DNA of 62,720 nucleotides, counting the filler, from Eubacteriales bacterium (lineage in GTDB: Bacteria; Bacillota; Clostridia; Oscillospirales; CAG-382), in assembly GCA_045636665.1 (NCBI GenBank). It is 5 parts of 5 records of this genome, joined end to end, with 100 filler letters (N's around TTAATTAATTAA, not from the genome) between each part and the next. Parts side by side here need not be neighbours in the genome. Positions count along the whole stretch, not along the records: positions 57,451 to 62,720 come from JAZTXY010000074.1; 4 more parts are not named here. One strand, 5' to 3'. A model generated the notes under the pieces. It saw only the letters and a list, made by a program, of their open reading frames with translations. It was not told where the DNA came from and made no database searches. A program made the translations under genes and the position numbers. Shown here in pieces: positions 2,401 through 62,720 of the stretch; positions within the stretch are counted from its first letter, which is position 1; each line of letters starts with the position of its first letter.

Positions 2401-3137
2401 TTCAAATTCTCCAAATATTCTGCCACACCACAATAAATCGACATTGTAATTGCTATTTTATAATTTAAATCCTTTAAAAGTTCTGCTTCATCTTCATTAG
2501 AAATAAATCCGCATTCAACAAGTGTAGCAGGCATTTCTAATTTTTCAAGCAAATAAATTGTATTCTTTGCGTCAGCAATAATGCGTTTATTGTCGGTTTG
2601 AAATACTTTAACGTTGCTTTGCACACTCTCTGCAAGCAACTTCCCTGCTTCGTTACCGCTTTTATAAAAAGCTTGCAAGCCCTTGCAATAATCGGCAGGA
2701 AATTTATTCATATGAATGCTCACGAAAATAGCATTTTCAAAACCGTTCGCAGCTTTTTCTCGATTTCTGATATCATAATACTTTTTGCGGTTTTCTTCAC
2801 CCTCGCCGTAAAGCAGGCGATCGTCATATCTTGTCAAATGCGTCTGATATCCATTCGCGACAAGAATTTCATTAAGAAGCTTTGCAATTTCAAGGTTAAG
2901 TTCTTTTTCGACAAGGCCATTAGAAACAGCCCCCGGATCTTCACCGCCGTGACCTGCATCAATAATAACGACAGGCTTTTTATCAACGGTATCATTAACC
3001 TCATTGTTTGTTTTGAGCCCCTTGTAACCCATAGAGGTGAACATCGTAGCAAAAAAGTAAAATATCAATGAAACAGAAAGAACTATTGATAAAATCAACA
3101 AGCACAAACGAGCTTCTTTATAAATGTTAAAACGCAT
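2397..3137 (-). CDS. N-acetylmuramoyl-L-alanine amidase (Amidase_3, CwlD-like)
   Basis: N-terminal TM; IDAGHGG, EKELNL, SIHMN and LVECGFISN zinc-amidase motifs. Confidence 0.9.
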   Translation of the reverse strand: MRFNIYKEARLCLLILSIVLSVSLIFYFFATMFTSMGYKGLKTNNEVNDTVDKKPVVIIDAGHGGEDPGAVSNGLVEKELNLEIAKLLNEILVANGYQTHLTRYDDRLLYGEGEENRKKYYDIRNREKAANGFENAIFVSIHMNKFPADYCKGLQAFYKSGNEAGKLLAESVQSNVKVFQTDNKRIIADAKNTIYLLEKLEMPATLVECGFISNEDEAELLKDLNYKIAITMSIYCGVAEYLENLK

Positions 3138-3197
3138 ATAAACCTCACAAAATCTTTTTGTAAATCTATATGCGATCTAACTTATTGCTATTACGTT

Positions 3198-3797
3198 TTA
3201 TTCTTTATTTTTGGGTTTGCGTTCAAGCGGACCGCCAAAAGGAGGCTTTACGTTCATGCCAAACATTCCGCGTATGGTTTTATCCTTGCATCCGATTGCA
3301 TATCCAAGAAAGCTTGCAATAATCGAAGGCAACAAGGTTACAATTACATAACCAATTATACCAATATAATCTAAAAGCTTATAAAGGCTCAAAAAGCTAC
3401 CCTGACACGCATAAAAGAGCAACAAAGGAATAGGCGTTTGATCTTCACCCGAAGGAGTTGCCAAAATCACAATAATTACCGAAATACCGATTAAGATCAC
3501 AGGAGTATATCCCAAAAGCGCGATTTTCAATCCCTTTAATACGTCGGGCTTAGTACCTTCAGCGCGGTGCTTGATACCTTCTTTAACACCTGCAAAAAAA
3601 GCATCGTCGTAATGCATAAAGCAAAGAAAACCAACCGTGAACAAGCTTGCAATGATTGCAATACCGCTGAATCCACCCGAACCGTCCTCAAGCGTAAGCA
3701 CGGCAAGTCCCACCATTATGCCGAGAATCGACATAACGAGATGTGTCATCATAAATTTTACAATCAATTTTGAATTTTCTCGAATGAATTTTAACAT
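3198..3797 (-). CDS. Integral membrane protein, unknown function
   Basis: 4-5 hydrophobic segments; ATG at 3797 with AGAGG RBS. Confidence 0.7.
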   Translation of the reverse strand: MLKFIRENSKLIVKFMMTHLVMSILGIMVGLAVLTLEDGSGGFSGIAIIASLFTVGFLCFMHYDDAFFAGVKEGIKHRAEGTKPDVLKGLKIALLGYTPVILIGISVIIVILATPSGEDQTPIPLLLFYACQGSFLSLYKLLDYIGIIGYVIVTLLPSIIASFLGYAIGCKDKTIRGMFGMNVKPPFGGPLERKPKNKE

Positions 3798-7500: not shown

Positions 7501-8070
7501 GTTAGGAGTGCTGCCGCCGAGTCCGGTGTCGGCAATCCAACCGTCGCCAACCGAAATTCCGTCTTTATATTCAACAGATTTTTTGGTTACTCCTGCAGAG
7601 CCGACAATCGGAAGATAGTAATTAGCCGATTTGGGAGCTGCAAAGCCGATACCTTCGAAGCTTACTTTTTCAACAACAATATCATCGATATTTACTTTTC
7701 CGTAGACAATATTTTCGTTATACAGAGCATTACCTGCGCCGAGAACTATGCGAAGCTCATTTTCGCCGTCAATAAGGTCGGTTGTTTTAATAGAAACAAC
7801 GTTTTCGCCGTCGACGAGATTAACAAGCTTCTTTCCGTTAAGCTGTATTTGGCTCAATGCGTTACCGGAGTCAGAAACCTTAATATGAGCAGTAAACTCA
7901 AAATCGGTTGATGCTTTAAAATCAACACCGTCAATAGTAACTGTATCTGCATCATTATTATCAAACACAACAACACCGCAAAGCATCTCGGGCGAAGCGG
8001 CAAACGCGTGCAAAGGAAGGCACGATAACACTATAATCGATAATAGAATTGTCACTATAATGCGTTTCAT
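4552..8070 (-). CDS. Large surface-anchored metallophosphoesterase with Ig-like domains and an InlB B-repeat
   Basis: Signal peptide; calcineurin-like motifs SDTQ, HTGDLVD, GNHD, THEY, CGHN; PFKTGYDFVGWY B-repeat; C-terminal TM. Confidence 0.85.
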   Translation of the reverse strand: MKRIIVTILLSIIVLSCLPLHAFAASPEMLCGVVVFDNNDADTVTIDGVDFKASTDFEFTAHIKVSDSGNALSQIQLNGKKLVNLVDGENVVSIKTTDLIDGENELRIVLGAGNALYNENIVYGKVNIDDIVVEKVSFEGIGFAAPKSANYYLPIVGSAGVTKKSVEYKDGISVGDGWIADTGLGGSTPNVPVYIGYVFDYSKDNGMFIVDTNKIKDGDHIAQFKKNGKVVSEKKFTVDNSAPVIEFSVKDGALVSKLQKVSFNANDISSVKTELFVDGKRSISINPKKLSTGKHVAVVTAIDAAGNKSINTLRFEVTEKLYHVEFFEENLNISVLGSGKIFSGELLKDIRMFENRYGALNQDFLRSEDEVLVSFNDKAELVTESIGDSVPYQSFVINVDGVKDDEVLVSYSGTTGNGSDICLKAWNYSTSAWDKIASVKSGDSVSVYVPLENYSYKKKMRINAMPEVVFNGSDTLLWNSDTQYYSRFEDLNEFYYKINEYAVDQYKKGNIGYYVHTGDLVDQTDAGDAIAHNEYKVASAAQKILDDALVPNGVVSGNHDILHTSENYDYYWKYFGEDRYKDFDWYGGSLNNNMHHYDLISLGGYDFVFLYIGNQKENDEDLIAWANNVCKAYPTRNVVLCTHEYLLPSGAYSGDRTEVIWEKIVVPNENVKMVLCGHNEGVCDQIKQVGDTDRYVLEILADYQFAELGVGPQHVVNGCTCDGEGFVRLMTFNDAGQVISKTYSPVASQFGQDPNNYYPSYSDSFVYDLDLISADRSICTSSFNVMHKSEFVGNVGEDDLSLKGCEAFFTEVEYNDAKSLSEIFVLWEYEVDYEPDESPEYSNPVGERIEVTGYDYVSENFRMNEDNKFPNADFIEVALNLLPSDVNLLKRTSGTQEIETSINDNGVVSIFNKAGDANGHWITMGYNYYNKNIKDPNPKYEVNGSDQIVLDLDKYNRLYFGVSTDKNAKWNIQINFAGTSLNFSQTKEIASKFGYVNNAPSDIRGTWNGYIDLSEFVSGKKVISSIYITNATNGEVVNFDYLFIGKSEGGKVRFIADENKVVTYENKVGGTVSLPGNPFKTGYDFVGWYTAKEGGEKITDSVTVSKELTELYARYTEKQYTNRQVTTSNTEINLERPAYGKMIFVASCLAIMLIVVIVLLIKINKTKGKKRS

Positions 8071-8102
8071 ATTTTAGACTCCTGATATTCATAATTAACT
8101 AC

Positions 8103-8131
8103 ATTATAGTATTTTTTTACCATTATGTCAA
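8103..8131 (-). promoter_or_regulatory. SigA promoter of the phosphoesterase gene cluster
   Basis: Perfect TTGACA-N17-TATAAT on the minus strand. Confidence 0.8.
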
Positions 8132-8233
8132 GCGTTTGAGCGTTACTGTTATGTGAACAAAGCTTAAATAAATACTTGAAAATTAATGTAAAAAGAATAT
8201 GATGGTTTTATCGTTATATATTAAGGACATTAT

Positions 8234-8332
8234 ATGATTAGATTGTACAAAAACAAATTAATTTATGTATTAGTCACTCTATTGATAATAATTTGTTGCT
8301 CTTGTGACACCTTTAGAATTTTTACCCGATGA
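8234..8332 (+). CDS. Small 32-aa hydrophobic peptide (lipoprotein-signal-like)
   Basis: MIRLYKNKLIYVLVTLLIIICCSCDTFRIFTR; AAGGA RBS, TTGAAA-N16-TATGAT upstream, hairpin immediately downstream. Confidence 0.4.
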   Translation: MIRLYKNKLIYVLVTLLIIICCSCDTFRIFTR

Positions 8333-8333
8333 A

Positions 8334-8378
8334 TATAAATAAAGAAATGCCCGCAATGCGGGCATTTCTTTATTTATA
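8334..8378. terminator. Bidirectional intrinsic terminator
   Basis: Perfect 21-bp inverted repeat TATAAATAAAGAAATGCCCGC-AAT-GCGGGCATTTCTTTATTTATA. Confidence 0.85.
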
Positions 8379-8391
8379 AAATTACTTATCG

Positions 8392-9936
8392 TTATTTAAT
8401 AACATCGATAATGGTTTTAGCAACCTTTTCCATGCCGTTTTTATTGGGATGAAGCTTATCTACGGTAAATTGAGAGATATTTGAAGGAGTAATTCCGCTG
8501 TTGTTATAAAGGTCGATCAAATTAACTCCCATATTTGCCGCAATGGTTCTTATTGCATCGTTATATGCAGATTCATCGATTCCCTGCGCATTGTTTGAAC
8601 CGGAAAAACGTTTTCTATCAGGTAAGAACGTACAGCAATAAACCTCAACGCCCTCATATTTATCCAATATATTTTTGATAGTTCTTCCGTACGCTTCGCT
8701 GAAATTGGTTGGGTTAACGGGAGGATCGCTCTTGCCGTCGTAAGTCCCTACGGCCGTTCCTGCTGCATAATCGTTGACACCCATAAAGACTACCACGACG
8801 TCAGGCTTAGCGACGTTTGAGGTGTTGTGGAGGTTCCGCGAGCGCACGTTATAGGTTTGGGCGGAATTGACAACCGATCCCGACCAAGAATTATTAACGG
8901 CAATTTCATAGCCAAGCTCTTTTGCAACCGTATGCCACCATGTATCTTGAACGGAAAGGTTGGCACCTACATAATTATTGTTGGGGTACCAAATCGCATT
9001 GCCGCCGATTGAATTGTTGTGCGACGTATTGTTTGACCATCCGCTGAAGGTAGAAATACTGTCGCCAAGGAAAGAAATATATTTTTTTCCTTCGTTGTCG
9101 TTATTGTTATCTGCTTCGGAATTCTTATAACCCTCGATTTTAAAGATCAAAGAATGGTTGTTTCCACCCTTGGATTCGAAAATTCGGTTCCAAAATCCAT
9201 AAGTGCCGTCATTACGCAAGAACATCGGCAAGACAGCCATATCGGTATCACCGAAAGCAAGTGTTTCATCGGGAGCGACTACAATTTCAAGATTATTTAC
9301 AGTAAGCCAATCTCCGCGCTTTACGTCCGAAAGCTTTCCTGTAAAATCCAATATGATCTTTTTACCGTTTTCAACCGTGCAATCATTCCTTTTGGTTGTG
9401 AAGTCCGTTTTAACAACGTAAATCGGCATATACAATTTTTCGGAATTAACGGTATAACCGCTCGCAAGCGAATCAAACGGGAAAGAAACCGAAGTAATTA
9501 CTGTGTCCGAAAACAACGTCGTATCATAAAGCGCAAAAGGCGCAAACGACGGAAGAAAAGGCGACGCGTAATTACTAAGACTTGAGCTGTCGAATAACGA
9601 AACTATTTCTTTTTTATCGTTTTCATTAGGCTTTTCGGGCTCAGACGTATCATTCGAGGTATCGCCAACCTCATCGCTTAATTCGTCCGACACTTCGTCT
9701 GATGTTTCATAAGAGGTGTCCGATGAAGTCTCAAGAGTGTCGGAGGAAGACTCGTAAGCATCCGCTGAAGACTCAGGCGTGTTCGAAGAAGACTCGAGAG
9801 TGTTCGCTGAAGACTCATAAGCGTCCGATGAAGACTCGGGCTTGGTTAAATCGGTACCGTCAGAAACTTCTGAACAACCAACCGCAGTAGCAACAACTAT
9901 GAGAAATGCCAATAATAACAAAAATATTCTTTTCAT
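8392..9936 (-). CDS. SGNH/GDSL hydrolase lipoprotein with Ser/Glu-rich linker
   Basis: Lipobox AVGC; blocks GDSIS, SWSG, GVND, DKLHP. Confidence 0.88.
   Translation of the reverse strand: MKRIFLLLLAFLIVVATAVGCSEVSDGTDLTKPESSSDAYESSANTLESSSNTPESSADAYESSSDTLETSSDTSYETSDEVSDELSDEVGDTSNDTSEPEKPNENDKKEIVSLFDSSSLSNYASPFLPSFAPFALYDTTLFSDTVITSVSFPFDSLASGYTVNSEKLYMPIYVVKTDFTTKRNDCTVENGKKIILDFTGKLSDVKRGDWLTVNNLEIVVAPDETLAFGDTDMAVLPMFLRNDGTYGFWNRIFESKGGNNHSLIFKIEGYKNSEADNNNDNEGKKYISFLGDSISTFSGWSNNTSHNNSIGGNAIWYPNNNYVGANLSVQDTWWHTVAKELGYEIAVNNSWSGSVVNSAQTYNVRSRNLHNTSNVAKPDVVVVFMGVNDYAAGTAVGTYDGKSDPPVNPTNFSEAYGRTIKNILDKYEGVEVYCCTFLPDRKRFSGSNNAQGIDESAYNDAIRTIAANMGVNLIDLYNNSGITPSNISQFTVDKLHPNKNGMEKVAKTIIDVIK
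9712..9837 (-). repeat. Intragenic 21-bp tandem repeat (~6 units, ESSxxxx heptapeptides)
   Basis: GAAGACTC/GAAGTCTC core at 9725, 9746, 9767, 9788, 9809 and 9830 (period 21). Confidence 0.85.
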
Positions 9937-57350: not shown

Positions 57351-57450
57351 NNNNNNNNNNNNNNNNNNNNNNNNNNNNNNNNNNNNNNNNNNNNTTAATT
57401 AATTAANNNNNNNNNNNNNNNNNNNNNNNNNNNNNNNNNNNNNNNNNNNN
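57351..57450. other. Artificial contig linker
   Basis: N44-TTAATTAATTAA-N44. Confidence 0.99.
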
Positions 57451-57870
57451 ACTACACTGCTACGCTTGACTACGGTCGCCGCCGCTAAAGCGGTAAATTC
57501 TCGTCATTCTTCGCTTGTCATTTTTTTCACAACCGCAACTCTTTCGCTTTTTTTGAGCGGCTCGCGGAGTTGAGTAATCGAAAGGAAGATAAAAATCAAA
57601 GGAGAGAAAAACGATAACGGTAATGGGTGGGGGCGCGGGCTGAGCATAGGCGGTTTTTTCTTTCGTAGCGCAGCCGAATAGGCAAGCGTCAAGCGAAAGA
57701 AAAAATTTTTTGAGCAAAGCGAAAAAAAAGCCGTGTCGACGACGAGGCGAAAACAAGTTAGCACGTCCCCGCGAAAACTTGCGGCTGTTTTAACGTTCAA
57801 GGGGGCGTGCACGCAGTTTGAGCCCGTCGGCGTATGCTCAGGGGCGCATCTGCGACGTTGCTTAAAGTCG

Positions 57871-57952
57871 TTGACAGCTCGTTTTCATTTGTGATAAAAT
57901 CGTTATCACAAATCGTAATGTTCTTTGTTTCGTTTGATAAGTCGTTTTATCA
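57871..57952 (+). promoter_or_regulatory. Promoter of left repL-like gene overlapped by TGATAA/TTATCA palindromes
   Basis: TTGACA-N18-(TG)TAAAAT; ATTTGTGATAA-N5-TTATCACAAAT (57887-57913); TGATAA-N6-TTATCA (57935-57952). Confidence 0.7.
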
Positions 57953-57971
57953 CTTCGAGGAGGAAATCTTA

Positions 57972-58547
57972 ATGCGCTCTCAAGTTGCCAAAGTCAGTCC
58001 CGTCGTCCGCATGGCTGAAATCAAAGACCAACAAATCCAGGAGATTTTGGAGTATAATGAACGTAAAAAATCTCCCTTTAGGAAGTGGGTACAGATGAAC
58101 TACGACGATAACGCTTACCAAGCCGATGATTTTCTCGTTGCCAATTCTCCGACTGCTTACAGGATTTTCAAGTTCCTCATTGCCAACATGGACAAATATA
58201 ACGCCGTAATCGTCAGTTACAAAGTTATCCAGCAGGTTTTCGGCTACGGGCAAGCCACTGTCGCAAGAGCCGTCAAGTTTTTGAAAGACCACAACTATAT
58301 TGAAGTCGTTCGTACCGGTGGCGCAAATATCTACACCATTAACAAGCACCTTTATTGGAACTCTTGGGGCACCAACTACGAATACGCCGAGTTTGATGCG
58401 CGCGTTATCATCACCTCTTCCGAGCAGGATAAACAAACTCAAGCGAAAATTCGTACTCAGATTAAGAAAAGGCAGGAAGTTATTCAAAGCCCGCCGACTT
58501 TCCAAGAACAAATTCTTAAGGCTCAAGCTATGGATAATGCAGAATAA
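57972..58547 (+). CDS. RepL-like replication/maintenance HTH protein
   Basis: GAGGAGG RBS; WVQM, IFKFLIANMDKYNAVIVS, HTH ATVARAVKFLKD, YTIN..YW. Confidence 0.75.
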   Translation: MRSQVAKVSPVVRMAEIKDQQIQEILEYNERKKSPFRKWVQMNYDDNAYQADDFLVANSPTAYRIFKFLIANMDKYNAVIVSYKVIQQVFGYGQATVARAVKFLKDHNYIEVVRTGGANIYTINKHLYWNSWGTNYEYAEFDARVIITSSEQDKQTQAKIRTQIKKRQEVIQSPPTFQEQILKAQAMDNAE

Positions 58548-58559
58548 TTCTTGTATAAT
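58531..58559 (+). promoter_or_regulatory. Putative promoter of the small-protein/Rpn operon
   Basis: TGGATA-N17-TATAAT followed by AGGAGG RBS. Confidence 0.55.
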
Positions 58560-58581
58560 CTGAAAAAAGGAGGTCGCGCTT

Positions 58582-58809
58582 ATGAGCTATGTTTTTTCTA
58601 CCGAGAAAGTCGGTTCCGTCAAACTCCAAAACTTTCATCACTCCATTGGCAAAAGCTTAATGCTTGCAGGGGTTGACGGGCAGACCAACGACGCTGACAC
58701 CGTGATTAACGGAATCAATCAGTTGCTTTCTATCGTGAACTTTCAGAACGAATACGACCCCGAAGACGCGATTAGGACGGTGATTCAAAGTGTCAACGTA
58801 CAAGAATAA
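58582..58809 (+). CDS. Small protein A (75 aa), divergent DUF1659-like
   Basis: Strong RBS; beta-beta-helix-beta pattern, ends T...SV like ORF C. Confidence 0.55.
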   Translation: MSYVFSTEKVGSVKLQNFHHSIGKSLMLAGVDGQTNDADTVINGINQLLSIVNFQNEYDPEDAIRTVIQSVNVQE

Positions 58810-59044
58810 TGTGACTGTCACTTTACTTTATATCGACGGATACACCCGCTCTTACACTTTCGAGAACGTCGCCGACAACGACTTAATCAACGTCAAGAGC
58901 GTTGTCAAAGCAATCAACAAGAACGAAAATAATCAGTACGCGGCTTTTTATTCGACGTTCATAAGTCCTGACGGCGCGGCGGTTGAGAAAATCGAGGCGG
59001 CTCGTATTGTTTCTGTTGAAGAGGAGGTGCTTTACAGTGACTAA
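58790..59044 (+). CDS. Small protein B (84 aa), DUF2922-like
   Basis: YIDGYTRSYTFEN...F...DG.....I..ARIV..EE; paralog of ORF D. Confidence 0.65.
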   Translation: MSTYKNNVTVTLLYIDGYTRSYTFENVADNDLINVKSVVKAINKNENNQYAAFYSTFISPDGAAVEKIEAARIVSVEEEVLYSD

Positions 59045-59225
59045 GGTTATTTCTATGGTTATCCAGAGCACCGACAGTTCAGCCAAAAAACAAACCAACA
59101 CTGTAACCTATATCAATCCGACGGCGACCAATGAACAAATTAGAACATTCGCGCAGAAAATCATTGCACTCACCACTGACAACTATGTCGGCGTCACGAA
59201 GGTAACGAAAGAGAGCGTGATCTGA
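59037..59225 (+). CDS. Small protein C (62 aa), DUF1659-like
   Basis: GTG with GAGGAGGTG RBS; KKQTNTVTYINPTATNEQI..FAQ.I.AL pattern. Confidence 0.7.
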   Translation: MTKVISMVIQSTDSSAKKQTNTVTYINPTATNEQIRTFAQKIIALTTDNYVGVTKVTKESVI

Positions 59226-59227
59226 CT

Positions 59228-59476
59228 ATGGCTGACATCATTAAAACTGCGTACAATCTGGTAATTGAAACGGTCTTTGTAGACGGCGACACGCGCTCCA
59301 TAACAATCAAAAACCCGCGCAACAATATTTCCCAAAGCGAAATTAGCGAGTTAAATTCCTACATGCAAGAGAACAACATTATAATCGGAGATAAAGACGG
59401 CTCGACGTTCGGGCGGATTAAGAAAGTCACGCGGCGCAGTTCCACAACGACTTACCTTGACATTAGCGATGATTGA
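59228..59476 (+). CDS. Small protein D (82 aa), DUF2922-like
   Basis: L.I...F.DG.TRSITIKNPR..IS..EI......NII...DG pattern. Confidence 0.7.
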   Translation: MADIIKTAYNLVIETVFVDGDTRSITIKNPRNNISQSEISELNSYMQENNIIIGDKDGSTFGRIKKVTRRSSTTTYLDISDD

Positions 59477-59478
59477 AA

Positions 59479-60309
59479 ATGGCAGAATATAACAAACGGT
59501 ATCGCGATACGGTCTTCCGCGATTACTTCAACGACGAGGAAAGATTGTTATCGCTTTGTAATGCTTTACTCGGAACGGATGCTGCCGCGCTCAAAATAAA
59601 TACTCTCGAAGGAATATTTTTCGACCGGCAGAAGAACGATATTTCCTGTGTCGTCGAAAATAATTTTCTCGTCCTTATCGAACATCAAAGCACAATCAAT
59701 GAAAATATGCCGTTTCGGTGTTTGTCCTACGTCGCCGAGCTTATGAACAATCTGGTTGAAGACAAGGATAAACTGTATCATAAAGCCTTGATACGGTTCC
59801 CTGCGCCCCGATTTTACGTCTTTTACGACGGAGACGCCTTGCAACCCGTAGAAAGGCTTTTGCGCTTATCAGAAGCGTTTACAGGTTCAAATTCAGCCCT
59901 TGAATTGGTCGTAACTTCGCTTAATATAAATCACGGCTTGGAGCAACCGTTGCTTGCAAAATGTCGGTATCTGCGCGAGTATTCGACGCTAGTCGGCAAG
60001 GTTAAAGAAGGAATCCGCTCCGGACTAACGAGACGCGAGGCAATAAGCCGAGCGGTAAAATTTTGTCTCGACAAGGGACTGATGAAAGGTTATCTGGAAA
60101 AAAAATCGCAGGAGGTGTTCCATATGCTCGCTTTGCAGTGGGAGCAAGAAAAAGCAATCCGCGCAAGCTATGAGGACGGGCGCGACGACGGGATAGAATC
60201 CATTGCGCTCAAGATGATTCAGCTCGGTAAACCTTTGGAGGATATTCTTCAGATTACCGATTTGCCGATTGAGAAAATCAAAAAACTTTCCGACAAAATC
60301 AAGAACTGA
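59479..60309 (+). CDS. Rpn-family PD-(D/E)XK nuclease ('putative transposase')
   Basis: RDTVFR, KNDIS, LIEHQST.NENMP.R.L.Y, C-terminal EDG..G..IA..M......I...T.L helix-turn-helix tail. Confidence 0.85.
   Translation: MAEYNKRYRDTVFRDYFNDEERLLSLCNALLGTDAAALKINTLEGIFFDRQKNDISCVVENNFLVLIEHQSTINENMPFRCLSYVAELMNNLVEDKDKLYHKALIRFPAPRFYVFYDGDALQPVERLLRLSEAFTGSNSALELVVTSLNINHGLEQPLLAKCRYLREYSTLVGKVKEGIRSGLTRREAISRAVKFCLDKGLMKGYLEKKSQEVFHMLALQWEQEKAIRASYEDGRDDGIESIALKMIQLGKPLEDILQITDLPIEKIKKLSDKIKN
60124..60309 (+). CDS. Candidate intragenic small Rpn (RpnS-like antitoxin), 61 aa
   Basis: In-frame ATG at 60124 preceded by AGGAGGTG (60110-60117) at 6-nt spacing. Confidence 0.6.
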   Translation: MLALQWEQEKAIRASYEDGRDDGIESIALKMIQLGKPLEDILQITDLPIEKIKKLSDKIKN

Positions 60310-60317
60310 AACTAAAG

Positions 60318-60351
60318 AAAAACTCTCGACCGCGTGCCGAGAGTTTTTTTT
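60318..60351. terminator. Bidirectional terminator between the convergent halves of the element
   Basis: AAAAACTCTCG-N9-CGAGAGTTTTTTTT. Confidence 0.8.
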
Positions 60352-60365
60352 CTTTTCATCGCTAC

Positions 60366-61304
60366 TTACCAATTCAATTCGATTCTTCCTCTGCCATTGC
60401 AATCGGGACAAGTTTTCTTAACTGTTACTCCGGGCGGTGGTGGCTCGCCGTATCGCGGTCCGTTATAATACTCAAATTCTTCGATATAACCGCTCCCATT
60501 ACACCTGAAACATTGTTTGTCTTTTATTTCATCTGCTGCATTTCTCATTTCCGGACCGCTCGGATAATCGAAGTTATCGCTACTACCGCTTGAGGGTTGC
60601 GGATTATGTTTTACTTCTTGAAGTTGGTATCGAGTGCGGTCGCCAGTGTCTGTGTAATTTATTCCGTCCGCATATCTTATAATTATTTCATTGTTCGAAA
60701 CCCTTATATATAAATTTATTTTATCATTGTGACTTACGATACTTTTAGTAAATTGCTTTACAGAACCTGTGCCAGTGTAAATAAAACCATAACATATAAT
60801 GCTAGGAATGTCATTTTCCTTCCCAAATAGTCTAAAGTTGTATTTACTTGTTATTAGGTTCATGTATTCTTGCATAACATCATAATTCGAATATTTTCCG
60901 GGAATTGATGCAATGACATAATTCACTCTTTGAGAATTATCATCATATCCCATCCAAATAATTTCTGCTTTGTTATGGGAAAAAGCCAAGAAGTCAGGTA
61001 AATAAGTATCGCTTTGTGAATGAGAGACAGACGGGGCAGGTTGAGCTCTGGTCGATTCCGGAGTTGAAGTTGGTTTAGTCTCAGTAGTTTTTCGCGTCGG
61101 CTCTTTTGCGATTGGTTGCGGTTTAGGTTCTTCTTTCTTTGGTTGCGGCTTGTACTGAGAAACGTTCTTTTCGCGTTCAATATCGTCAGCACTTTTTACA
61201 GAGCTCATATTGACGGAGGAGCCGCAAGCACTAAGAAGCAACCCGCAAACGAACAACATCAAGAGCGAAAAAACTAATGGTAGAAAATTATTCTTTCTGT
61301 TCAT
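60366..61304 (-). CDS. Lipoprotein with Pro/Thr linker and C-terminal DnaJ-type zinc finger
   Basis: Lipobox LSAC; CFRCNGSG and CPDCNGRG (CxxCxGxG x2). Confidence 0.8.
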   Translation of the reverse strand: MNRKNNFLPLVFSLLMLFVCGLLLSACGSSVNMSSVKSADDIEREKNVSQYKPQPKKEEPKPQPIAKEPTRKTTETKPTSTPESTRAQPAPSVSHSQSDTYLPDFLAFSHNKAEIIWMGYDDNSQRVNYVIASIPGKYSNYDVMQEYMNLITSKYNFRLFGKENDIPSIICYGFIYTGTGSVKQFTKSIVSHNDKINLYIRVSNNEIIIRYADGINYTDTGDRTRYQLQEVKHNPQPSSGSSDNFDYPSGPEMRNAADEIKDKQCFRCNGSGYIEEFEYYNGPRYGEPPPPGVTVKKTCPDCNGRGRIELNW

Positions 61305-61319
61305 GTCATTACCCTCATA

Positions 61320-61505
61320 CTATCTGCGTGATTCAATAAACTCTTCGTATTTCTCATTTAAATCCTTATTTGCTCTAATTTCTTCTCTTATCGAATTTTG
61401 CATATTGTTAATTGCCAATAAGTTGTCTCCTATATTTACCAATGAGATAATCGAAATATATGTTAGAAATAACAGCACGATAACTTTAACAACTTTAATA
61501 ATCAT
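61320..61505 (-). CDS. Small single-TM protein (61 aa)
   Basis: GGAGG RBS; N-terminal hydrophobic helix plus charged helix. Confidence 0.6.
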   Translation of the reverse strand: MIIKVVKVIVLLFLTYISIISLVNIGDNLLAINNMQNSIREEIRANKDLNEKYEEFIESRR

Positions 61506-61517
61506 AGAAAAACCTCC

Positions 61518-61715
61518 TCATTTGTACTTCATACCTTCTTCATCAGCTTTAATCATTTTGTCTCGAATGTCACTGTTCATTTTTGTAATCTGTTGTTTGT
61601 TATTGAATGTTTCACGTCGTTCTTTACTTGTTACGGTAGAGCCAAAAAAAGTTACAGCCGCTATGATAGCCATAACGATGATAGCTTTGGTGAGCTTATC
61701 AAATTTGTTCCACAT
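61518..61715 (-). CDS. Small single-TM protein (65 aa)
   Basis: GAGGTG RBS; TTGTAA-N17-TATAAT promoter at 61753-61781. Confidence 0.6.
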   Translation of the reverse strand: MWNKFDKLTKAIIVMAIIAAVTFFGSTVTSKERRETFNNKQQITKMNSDIRDKMIKADEEGMKYK

Positions 61716-61815
61716 GATTTCTTACACCTCAAGAAATTTACTTTATGAGAAAATTATATAGGTATACGAAAAAATTTACAAGGTATGAAAATACTTTAAG
61801 CAAACTTTAATAAAA

Positions 61816-62157
61816 TCACTTTCGTTTTCGTTGATTAGTCAGCCGCCAGCGGCGATTCCACTCGTCAAGGCGAGCTTGTCTGTCGGAACCCCATTCGACG
61901 AAGTAAGGCGAAATCATGAACTCGAAATAACCCTTACAGCGGGTCTCGTGCACGATGTAATTGCTATACAACCATTGCAGAGCCAAATACAAAGATTTAG
62001 CGTCCATTGAGAGCATTTCGGCAAGATATTTCTTTGTGGTACGGACAAAACCTGTTTGGGGGTGAATATTGAGAGCGAGCCAGAAGAAAACGCGCAAAGT
62101 TGTGGGCGCAGGCGGATTTTTCAGCAGCTGATTGCATTTATCAAGGTTAAAAGTCAT
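61816..62157 (-). CDS. Second RepL-like winged-HTH protein (113 aa)
   Basis: GGAGGAG RBS; LRVFFWL, TKKYLAEML.M...SLY.AL..L HTH, FMISPYF..G wing. Confidence 0.65.
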   Translation of the reverse strand: MTFNLDKCNQLLKNPPAPTTLRVFFWLALNIHPQTGFVRTTKKYLAEMLSMDAKSLYLALQWLYSNYIVHETRCKGYFEFMISPYFVEWGSDRQARLDEWNRRWRLTNQRKRK

Positions 62158-62217
62158 AAAGGACTCCTCCAATCAAAATCTTGTATTTCGGGTAATATTG
62201 CCCGATAATTATAGCGT

Positions 62218-62353
62218 AATTGCATTGATATTGCAACAATTAAGTGTATCACAAATCTTTAAATTGCATACATATTTCAACAATTCATATGTTGCACCTG
62301 CAACGATTTATCATAGCTGATGATAAATCGACTTATCACACGATGATAAATCG
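62218..62353. repeat. Iteron/operator-like repeat cluster
   Basis: AATTGCAT..ATATT.CAACAATT at 62218 and 62262 (21/24 identical); ATGATAAATCG copies at 62304 (inverted), 62320 and 62343. Confidence 0.7.
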
Positions 62354-62720
62354 TTACATTTTGACTAAACGCATTGCCACTAGGCAAAACTGGCTTTTGT
62401 CAACCTTTTTCCTCTTCGTTCTTCGTGGACGGCAGGAACGCGGCGAAAAAGCTACGGCAATGACGGACTAAAACGCGTACGAGCGGCTGTGGCGCGGTGA
62501 TTAGTTGGAGTAGTCGCAATCCTAAATCGCGAGGTGTCCGGGCGAAATTCGTCGCCTGCAACGGGCTAAAAGCTTAACGGCGCAACACGCTCAACGCCGC
62601 AACCGCGACAAGCGCGGGCGTCGTTGGCATATTGCTTGTTAAGCCCGTCACTGCGCTACGCTTGTGCCGCGCCCGTTTCCGGCGACGCTGGGGGCTTTTG
62701 CCCCCCCCCCCACCCCCCCC

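Follow-up and report, generated by a model that had tools for sequence, protein, structure and literature searches.

A probable 5.36-kb RepL-family plasmid with a conserved accessory backbone from a rumen-type gut community

We analysed a 62,720-nt window from the assembly of an Eubacteriales bacterium (GCA_045636665.1), a metagenome-assembled genome (MAG) of 139 contigs, 1.82 Mb and 80% completeness. The window consists of five contigs joined by N spacers, and the subject of this report is the last of them, the 5,270-bp contig C74 (57451–62720), a candidate small replicon built around an initiator gene of the RepL family. C74 carries ten open reading frames (ORFs) in two convergent blocks (Table 1). 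The plus-strand block comprises a winged helix-turn-helix (wHTH) gene, repL, followed by four small ORFs spanning 58582–59476 (o2–o5) and an Rpn-type nuclease gene, and stops at 60309; the minus-strand block comprises a second wHTH gene, whose product is 113 aa counted from the conserved Met, two small membrane-protein ORFs and a lipoprotein gene, and stops at 60366. The two wHTH genes point inward, the blocks meet at one bidirectional intrinsic terminator, and the non-coding ends are GC-rich (0.50 for 57451–57870 and 0.60 for 62380–62720, against 0.416 for the genes). Scans of the ten ORFs with Pfam, PHROGs and NCBIfam found no housekeeping gene, HUH Rep, relaxase, integrase, Zot-like ATPase or capsid, and no mobilisation gene was found with Pfam and PHROGs. 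Rfam gave 0 matches on C74 at E ≤ 1, no tRNA, tmRNA or resistance gene is present on it, PADLOC matched none of 7 window proteins, and blastn of the whole contig in its 'distant' setting matched nothing in PLSDB or in phage records. A sequence-only reading of this DNA had described the lack of housekeeping, HUH Rep/relaxase, integrase, Zot-like ATPase and recognisable capsid genes, the inward-facing wHTH genes, the shared terminator and the GC-rich ends, all of which we recover; it had passed over the genes for the Rpn-type nuclease and the lipoprotein, and o2–o5.

The first wHTH gene is, as judged from its homologues, a true RepL initiator. In tblastn searches its product was 55% identical to the annotated RepL of Staphylococcus aureus pKKS49 over 68% of its length, 46% identical to the RepL of Selenomonas ruminantium pONE429/pSRD192 over 80% of its length, and 53% identical to a Bacillus badius plasmid protein. 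Of 226 candidate clusters of homologues, 198 passed E ≤ 0.001, many of them carrying the Pfam RepL family (PF05732), and the Pfam families Rep_1, Rep_2 and Rep_trans gave no match to the C74 protein. In its AlphaFold2 (AF2) model, residues 40–130 form a wHTH core that is predicted with confidence, and the best PDB matches are TubR and ArsR-type winged helices, with no nuclease fold among them; a sequence-profile search of PDB returned generic MarR/ArsR matches only. According to an excerpt of the published account (PMC12089946), the RepL-family protein Rep191 of S. ruminantium pSRD191 supports replication of a shuttle vector in Selenomonas. Separately, some relatives pair a GIY-YIG nuclease domain with a RepL-like wHTH: P0043 (254 aa; PF01541 plus PF05732) shows 71% identity to the RepL of C74, and P0183 and P0205 combine GIY-YIG with a domain like that of the second wHTH protein. 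Such fusions could bear on how a nuclease-less RepL obtains its nick.

C74 is a nearly complete copy of a circle of about 5,356 bp. C74 terminates in a C-run, where a CTGGGGG...CCCCC hairpin and homopolymer mark the break, and has no exact terminal overlap within itself. Circularity was checked by aligning to the stretch the Logan contigs of four public runs, X1, which may be the source sample, and X2, X17 and X3, which come from other studies; parts of C74 left uncovered in X2, X3 and X17 were not counted as evidence unless a contig joined across them. In all four runs a single contig joins 62716 to 57451 across 90 intervening letters, the final four C's of C74 being missing from the joined form, and the junction contigs of X2, X17 and X3 are variants with 6–26 differences. 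The same gap is bridged by the metagenome contig L007, a 4,552-bp circle by virtue of a 268-nt terminal overlap, which places 62716 and 57451 90 bp apart and is 93% identical to C74 over 57451–59379 and 83% over 61825–62716. The size of about 5,356 bp follows from these 90 letters, in the run contigs and in L007. The proposal in the sequence-only reading of a circular replicon that the assembler had split inside a GC-rich intergenic region, at a C-run, is thereby borne out, and from the absence of any flanking DNA we infer that C74 is extrachromosomal.

Together, these results lead us to read C74, with a probability of roughly 0.8, as a nearly complete circular cryptic plasmid of about 5.36 kb that belongs to the RepL (pSN2/pSRD191) family and comes from an animal-gut (rumen-type) community. 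It is thus of a known kind and does not represent the undescribed class of element that had been suggested: RepL (pSN2-family) plasmids have long been known, and include pSRD191, pONE429 and pSRD192 of rumen Selenomonas, as set out in portions of two published sources (PMC12089946, PMC5703833). The lineage to which C74 belongs is known from metagenomes only and has a distinctive conserved backbone.

Table 1 Features of contig C74, in window coordinates.
Feature	Position	Strand	Description
GC-rich non-coding DNA	57451–57619	.	Right-hand part of the broken intergenic region; continues from 62716 via about 90 missing bases
Conserved structured non-coding element, candidate origin component	57620–57851	+	5-sequence alignment
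repL operon promoter	57871–57900	+	Sigma-70-type TTGACA-18-TAAAAT with TG extension; 11/12 matches
Probable RepL operator	57890–57952	.	Two GATAA-N5/6-TTATC palindromes, 57890–57910 and 57935–57952
repL	57972–58547	+	191-aa winged-helix replication initiator; Pfam, tblastn, AF2 wHTH core
o2	58582–58809	+	75 aa; no Pfam match; 79–92% aa identity in 5 relatives
o3	58790–59044	+	84 aa; weakly DUF2922-like
o4	59046–59225	+	About 59 aa; DUF1659/SroA-like
o5	59228–59476	+	82 aa; DUF2922/SroB-like
Rpn-type PD-(D/E)XK nuclease ('putative transposase' family), cargo	59473–60309	+	278 aa
Bidirectional intrinsic terminator	60315–60351		13-pair hairpin 60318–60348; A/T runs flanking on both strands
Lipoprotein, variable cargo	60366–61304	-	312 aa; signal peptide, lipobox Cys
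Two small predicted membrane proteins, variable cargo	61320–61715	-	61 and 65 aa
Second wHTH gene	61816–62157	-	113 aa; truncated, divergent RepL-superfamily protein, probable regulator
Second wHTH promoter	62236–62208 (feature 62189–62236)	-	TTGCAA-17-TATAAT
Probable RepL iterons (origin or handcuffing site)	62299–62358	.	Three TGATAART-type repeats plus palindromes
GC-rich (0.60) non-coding DNA	62380–62720	.	Ends in a CTGGGGG...CCCCC hairpin and homopolymer at the assembly break

For comparison, 18 related loci were fetched, 6 of which have terminal overlaps of 55–268 nt. Five of the loci (L001, L002, L007, L010 and L012) hold the whole backbone of RepL, second wHTH gene and o2–o5, and four of these five close on themselves at 4.55–5.31 kb with overlaps of 107–268 nt. 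Flanking chromosomal sequence was found in none of the backbone-carrying relatives, and the longest contig of any RepL, second-wHTH or o5 cluster is at most 19.4 kb, the longer ones being mostly 4–7 kb. Among the loci with RepL relatives outside this group, L013 (4.5 kb) encodes an HUH Rep_1 initiator (311–1345) beside a RepL relative (2727–3323) and is a two-replicon or cointegrate plasmid, and L014:1–812 holds two tandem RepL-like matches, 1–396 and 441–812, at 61% and 54% identity. L004:1–8830 is part of an 18.3-kb contig of a Selenomonadaceae MAG in which some 1.5 kb separate a RepL relative (50% identity; 7983–8543) from a complete tryptophan operon (trpE, G, D, C, F, B and A, by Pfam); it is either a larger RepL plasmid with trp genes or an integrated copy.

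The comparison separates this fixed backbone from a swappable, mostly defence-type cargo. The Rpn gene product aligns over residues 12–272 of 278 to positions 3–273 of the 273-position TIGR01784 model, at 46.9 bits against a cut-off of 52.1 (E 3.1e-12), and also matches phrog_3300 (E 1.6e-11); the gene is present in L007 and absent from L001, L002, L010 and L012. The cargo of L001 and L012 is a D12 adenine methylase with an AlwI-like endonuclease, and that of L010 a C5 methylase with an HpaII-like endonuclease. On the minus strand of C74, the lipoprotein bears two C-terminal zinc-finger motifs of the CxxCxGxG type. A contig from X17 joins 60288 to 61816, with intervening letters that are not known, and the region is uncovered in X2 and X3; from the X17 join, the lipoprotein block is therefore a cassette, delimited on one side by where the Rpn gene ends and on the other by the second wHTH gene's stop.

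The four small genes are the more strongly conserved part of the backbone, with amino-acid identities of 68–97% against 53–65% for RepL in the same elements (L007, with its 97% identical RepL, left out). Differences between the copies are in excess at third codon positions, which argues that o2–o5 are real genes under purifying selection. Pfam DUF1659 matches o4 at 30.6 bits against a cut-off of 24.1 (scanned as 58983–59225), and the NCBIfam SroA model matches it at 28.9 bits, below the cut-off of 80. For o5 the DUF2922 score of 24.1 bits lies just under the cut-off of 25.5, PF11148 is found on several of its homologues, and these homologues make up 107 of 108 clusters, all on contigs of at most 13.1 kb. 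Comparisons among o2–o5 with hhalign, using shallow alignments of 5–6 sequences, gave nothing in three cases and a weak match between o3 and o5 (E 0.0038, probability 8.8%). Neither o2 nor o5 had a tblastn match in the 72,556 PLSDB plasmids, o5 had none in phage records, and o2 found no usable match in the ESM Atlas. Because they are sited in the repL operon and are present in every backbone-complete relative, o2–o5 may form a regulatory or maintenance module of the backbone. The order of o4 and o5, DUF1659-like then DUF2922-like in tandem, is that of S. aureus SroA/SroB, from which the C74 pair differs in being plasmid-borne, part of a set of four, very divergent and without a sigS-like partner present. 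An excerpt of a preprint (bioRxiv 10.1101/2022.10.19.512975) reports that SroA and SroB of S. aureus interact and that SroA stabilises sigS mRNA.

The second wHTH protein is related to RepL at the level of the superfamily, and we do not file it as a family member. Compared with RepL it is missing about 55 aa at the N-terminus as well as the C-terminal part, and its homologues start at MTFNL. The hhalign comparison with RepL gave E 6.7e-5 over 79 columns, which cover the wHTH and the aromatic-x-x-W-G motif that follows it. A profile search of 1.84 billion representatives returned 83 remote homologues at E ≤ 0.001, mostly proteins of 150–220 aa that match in their C-terminal half; 46 of the 83 were scanned, and Pfam RepL was found in 15 of these at E ≤ 0.01 (10 of the 46 above the cut-off) and was the single specific Pfam family to recur among them. 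In the AF2 model (pLDDT, the predicted local distance difference test score, 75.5) strands and helices follow one another as they do in the RepL core, and the best PDB match, TubR (3m8f_B), is common to both models. A sequence-profile search of PDB found nothing meaningful, tblastn found no match in the 72,556 PLSDB plasmids, and homologue clusters number 45 of 45. The earlier placement of both wHTH genes in the RepL superfamily is thus upheld, for repL by Pfam and by the 55% and 46% identities, and for the second gene by hhalign and the remote homologues.

The second gene is present in all five full-backbone relatives and in L011 and L016; the more distant circular relatives L005 and L018 are without it. 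It is oriented opposite to repL in C74, L007, L010 and L002; in L001, L011 and L012 the two genes share a strand, with the second gene immediately upstream of repL, and in L001 and L012 its stop overlaps the repL start by 4 nt. The divergent layout is therefore not family-wide, and the 'symmetric architecture' that had been offered as the defining trait of the element does not stand. The second protein is probably a regulator and may act as a repressor. CopG–RepB operons of pMV158-family plasmids, which part of a published source mentions (PMC4280177), show the Cop–Rep arrangement, to which L001 and L012 can be likened in that a small DNA-binding gene overlaps rep within one operon and palindromic operators lie at the promoter. 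CopG, however, is a ribbon-helix-helix protein, whereas the small protein of C74 is a wHTH paralogue of the initiator and is transcribed divergently from a promoter of its own.

Both wHTH genes have repeats upstream. The sigma-70-type promoter of repL is a strong one whose -10 hexamer falls within the palindrome TGTGATAAAATCGTTATCACA; a further palindrome, GATAA-N6-TTATC, follows in the leader; the cluster at 62299–62358, upstream of the second-gene promoter, is of the same repeat type. A different signal, the 16-nt near-palindrome CGGGCAATATTACCCG, sits at the second-gene transcription start (62189–62204) and is kept in all arrangements, its outer bases changing as a pair in L010 and L002 (AGGG...CCCT). 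GATAA-type repeats occupy both places in L010, as in C74; in L002 the flanks are conserved but the repeat cassette is replaced by ATGTCCA/TGGACAT repeats. Identity to the C74 RepL is 53% for L002, 65% for L010 and 97% for L007, and the repeats of L007 are identical to those of C74 though its second wHTH protein is only 77% identical. Repeat type thus appears to track RepL type and not second-wHTH type, a lead and not a test given the few independent lineages, and for this reason the repeats are read as putative RepL operators or iterons.

Upstream of repL, the conserved non-coding element (57620–57851) shares 91% identity with L001 across 136 aligned nt, in a relative whose repL is only 66% identical. 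It contains a hairpin (57654–57705) with the 12-bp stem TTTTTTCTTTCG/CGAAAGAAAAAA and TAGCGC at the start of the loop; in L002 and L010 a different 7-bp stem holds the same loop sequence, GTAGCGYAGC. The hallmarks of the lagging-strand origin ssoA (single-strand origin, type A) are recombination site B (RSB) and conserved sequence 6 (CS-6, TAGCGT), as described in part of a published source (PMC4598088), and by this analogy an sso-like role of the conserved hairpin is plausible but unproven. The GC-rich region outside the element is common to L007 only, and the complete equivalent region of L007 folds somewhat better than its shuffles (z -2.4 and -3.1, 20 shuffles each). Within these regions the 11-mer GCGTAGCGCAG occurs exactly once in C74 (62651–62661, minus strand) and exactly twice in L007 (2735–2745 and 2840–2850, minus strand); a second C74 copy would fall in the missing 90 bp, and an inverted copy with one mismatch (57663–57673, plus strand) starts the loop of the conserved hairpin. 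With up to 2 mismatches the 11-mer is not enriched in the window (8 found, 12 expected) or clearly so in L007 (3 against 1.16 expected, with 24 of 200 shuffles as good), and the exact copies alone are noteworthy. The N spacers at 57351–57450 and at the other joins, which carry a TTAATTAATTAA stop-codon linker mid-run, reflect the construction of the scan and are not biology.

These elements allow us to propose how the plasmid may be maintained. RepL would bind the GATAA/TTATC repeats, the set over its own promoter giving autorepression and the second cluster, about 1.1 kb away across the GC-rich region, acting as iterons or origin. Replication would begin in or beside the conserved hairpin-rich element and, if C74 behaves like the staphylococcal RepL plasmids, would proceed by rolling circle with the TAGCGY-loop hairpin as the lagging-strand origin. 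In passages of a review (PMC5703833), pSN2-family RepL plasmids are described as replicating by rolling circle with a double-strand origin (dso) and ssoA; we take the mode from this pSN2 literature because RepL has no recognisable nuclease domain. The truncated RepL paralogue, with its own promoter and a palindromic operator at its transcription start, would regulate the replicon in the manner of a Cop protein, the four SroA/SroB-like small proteins would form the maintenance or regulatory module of the backbone, and the Rpn nuclease, lipoprotein and membrane-protein genes would be cargo. A further step, that the paralogue and the SroA/SroB-like quartet together provide a protein-based control of copy number or maintenance for RepL plasmids, is tentative and in our estimate unlikely; if it is true, the DNA-binding fold of the initiator would have been duplicated and cut down into its own regulator.

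Several observations weigh against reading C74 as a RepL plasmid that replicates in this way. repL is marginal to the Pfam RepL model (21.3 bits, the cut-off being 20.3; E 2e-4), and its product has no recognisable nuclease domain by Pfam or structure search. The second gene matches no Pfam family at E ≤ 1, so that of the two genes previously called RepL-like only repL matches the RepL model directly, and the hhalign probability for the second protein against RepL is only 64%. The RSB motif of ssoA was not found in the conserved element, the best match in L007 being a single one with 3 mismatches that lies in the cargo and is equalled in 15 of 200 shuffles, and the loop motif is TAGCGC in C74 and L007 and TAGCGT in L001, L002 and L010. 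Finally, a head-to-tail tandem array would yield an identical junction; we favour a free circle because the small relatives close on themselves.

Among other explanations, the one that survives best is a replicon with two initiators, in which both RepL-like proteins are required at one shared origin or at two (one per strand, for example), and which would be new as a design for replication, in contrast to a RepL plasmid that has a regulator. The constancy of the second gene, in the five full-backbone relatives and in L011 and L016, and the relation of its product to RepL by hhalign and remote homologues would suit this design, but the protein is missing both ends of RepL (about 55 aa at the N-terminus), and the distant circles L005 and L018 do without the gene altogether. 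The same repeat type stands upstream of both genes in C74; that type, however, follows RepL and not the second protein, and the divergent layout gives way to a tandem one in L001, L011 and L012. Sections of a review (PMC5703833) state that RepL plasmids have no known copy-control system, which counts in favour of a second initiator, yet characterised RepL plasmids such as pONE429 (2.1 kb) have one RepL only. We therefore regard two initiators as decidedly improbable.

A phage satellite, which had been put forward in the sequence-only reading, or a phage-plasmid that needs a helper phage for packaging and spread, is very improbable. The element is small and has no mobilisation genes, its four small genes could in principle act on a helper, and PHROGs holds RepL-like 'replication initiation' families. 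Pfam and PHROGs, however, reveal no integrase, capsid or other structural phage gene, terminase or packaging gene among the C74 ORFs; C74 DNA matched none of 50,697 phage records, o5 found no match in phage records either, a RepL relative is encoded in 0 of 32 candidate IMG/VR stretches, and the cargo of the lineage is typical of plasmids (restriction–modification systems). Slimmer still is the chance that C74 is a chromosomal or integrated element, such as a transposable unit linked to Rpn, or a tandem repeat that assembly turned into a circle, since against its member of a family annotated 'putative transposase' and the distant RepL relative beside a trp operon on an 18.3-kb contig stand the same end-to-start junction in 4 of 4 runs, relatives that close on themselves at 4.5–5.3 kb, RepL, second-wHTH and o5 homologues on small contigs with none above 19.4 kb, and the lack of a chromosomal flank in any backbone-carrying relative.

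Several observations bear on the host of the RepL plasmid, for which the sequence-only reading had raised a possible difference from contigs 1–4. Neither C74 nor its proteins matched the rest of the MAG, and a RepL relative was found in 0 of 40 genomes related to it (24 of the same genus). The tetranucleotide correlation between C74 and the MAG, 0.855, is at the 6.5th percentile of 275 chunks of the same size and neither fits nor excludes the MAG as host. Of the 1,368 naive starts in the MAG, 446 have a Shine–Dalgarno motif, whereas the complement control gives 17; LpxC was not found in it at 80% completeness, and SpoIID is present. It looks like a Shine–Dalgarno-using monoderm of the Bacillota, and on that account its organism stays a possible host. 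The plasmid itself has strong GGAGG ribosome-binding sites and TTGACA/TATAAT promoters, which are typical of Bacillota-type hosts. Its relatives (L001, L003 and L005 among them) sit in MAGs that bear the labels Bacteroidales, Alphaproteobacteria, Sarcina, Selenomonadales and Selenomonadaceae, and given these Bacillota-type signals the Bacteroidales and Alphaproteobacteria bins, which hold two of the relatives, look unlikely as true hosts. The bin in which a small plasmid contig ends up seems to be close to arbitrary. Because the relatives sit in such varied bins, bin membership says little about the host, a practical warning for plasmids of this sort.

The closest described systems are the small circular cryptic rumen plasmids of S. 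ruminantium, pONE429 (2.1 kb), pSRD192 (2.3 kb) and pSRD191, whose RepL-family initiators of about 180–200 aa resemble that of C74. They have no DNA similarity to it and, at 2–2.3 kb with one RepL, lack its second wHTH gene, four small genes and cargo. With the pSN2-family plasmids and the RepL of pKKS49, C74 shares a winged-helix initiator that lacks HUH motifs and is about 18–22 kDa in size, encoded on a plasmid of a few kilobases; for these plasmids the review (PMC5703833) allows that a small ORF has a regulatory role. C74 differs in its accessory backbone, in having no resistance gene, and in its conserved element, which has a CS-6-like TAGCGY in the hairpin loop only and in which RSB was not found.

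Among the classic small-plasmid families, that of RepL is understood least: its initiator has no recognisable nuclease domain and, as far as the relevant part of a review goes (PMC5703833), no copy control is known. The lineage described here is abundant in ruminant-gut metagenomes, where 198 RepL, 45 second-wHTH and 107 o5 clusters all lie on small contigs. It could serve as a tractable model for studying how RepL is regulated, and as a backbone for vectors in rumen Bacillota.

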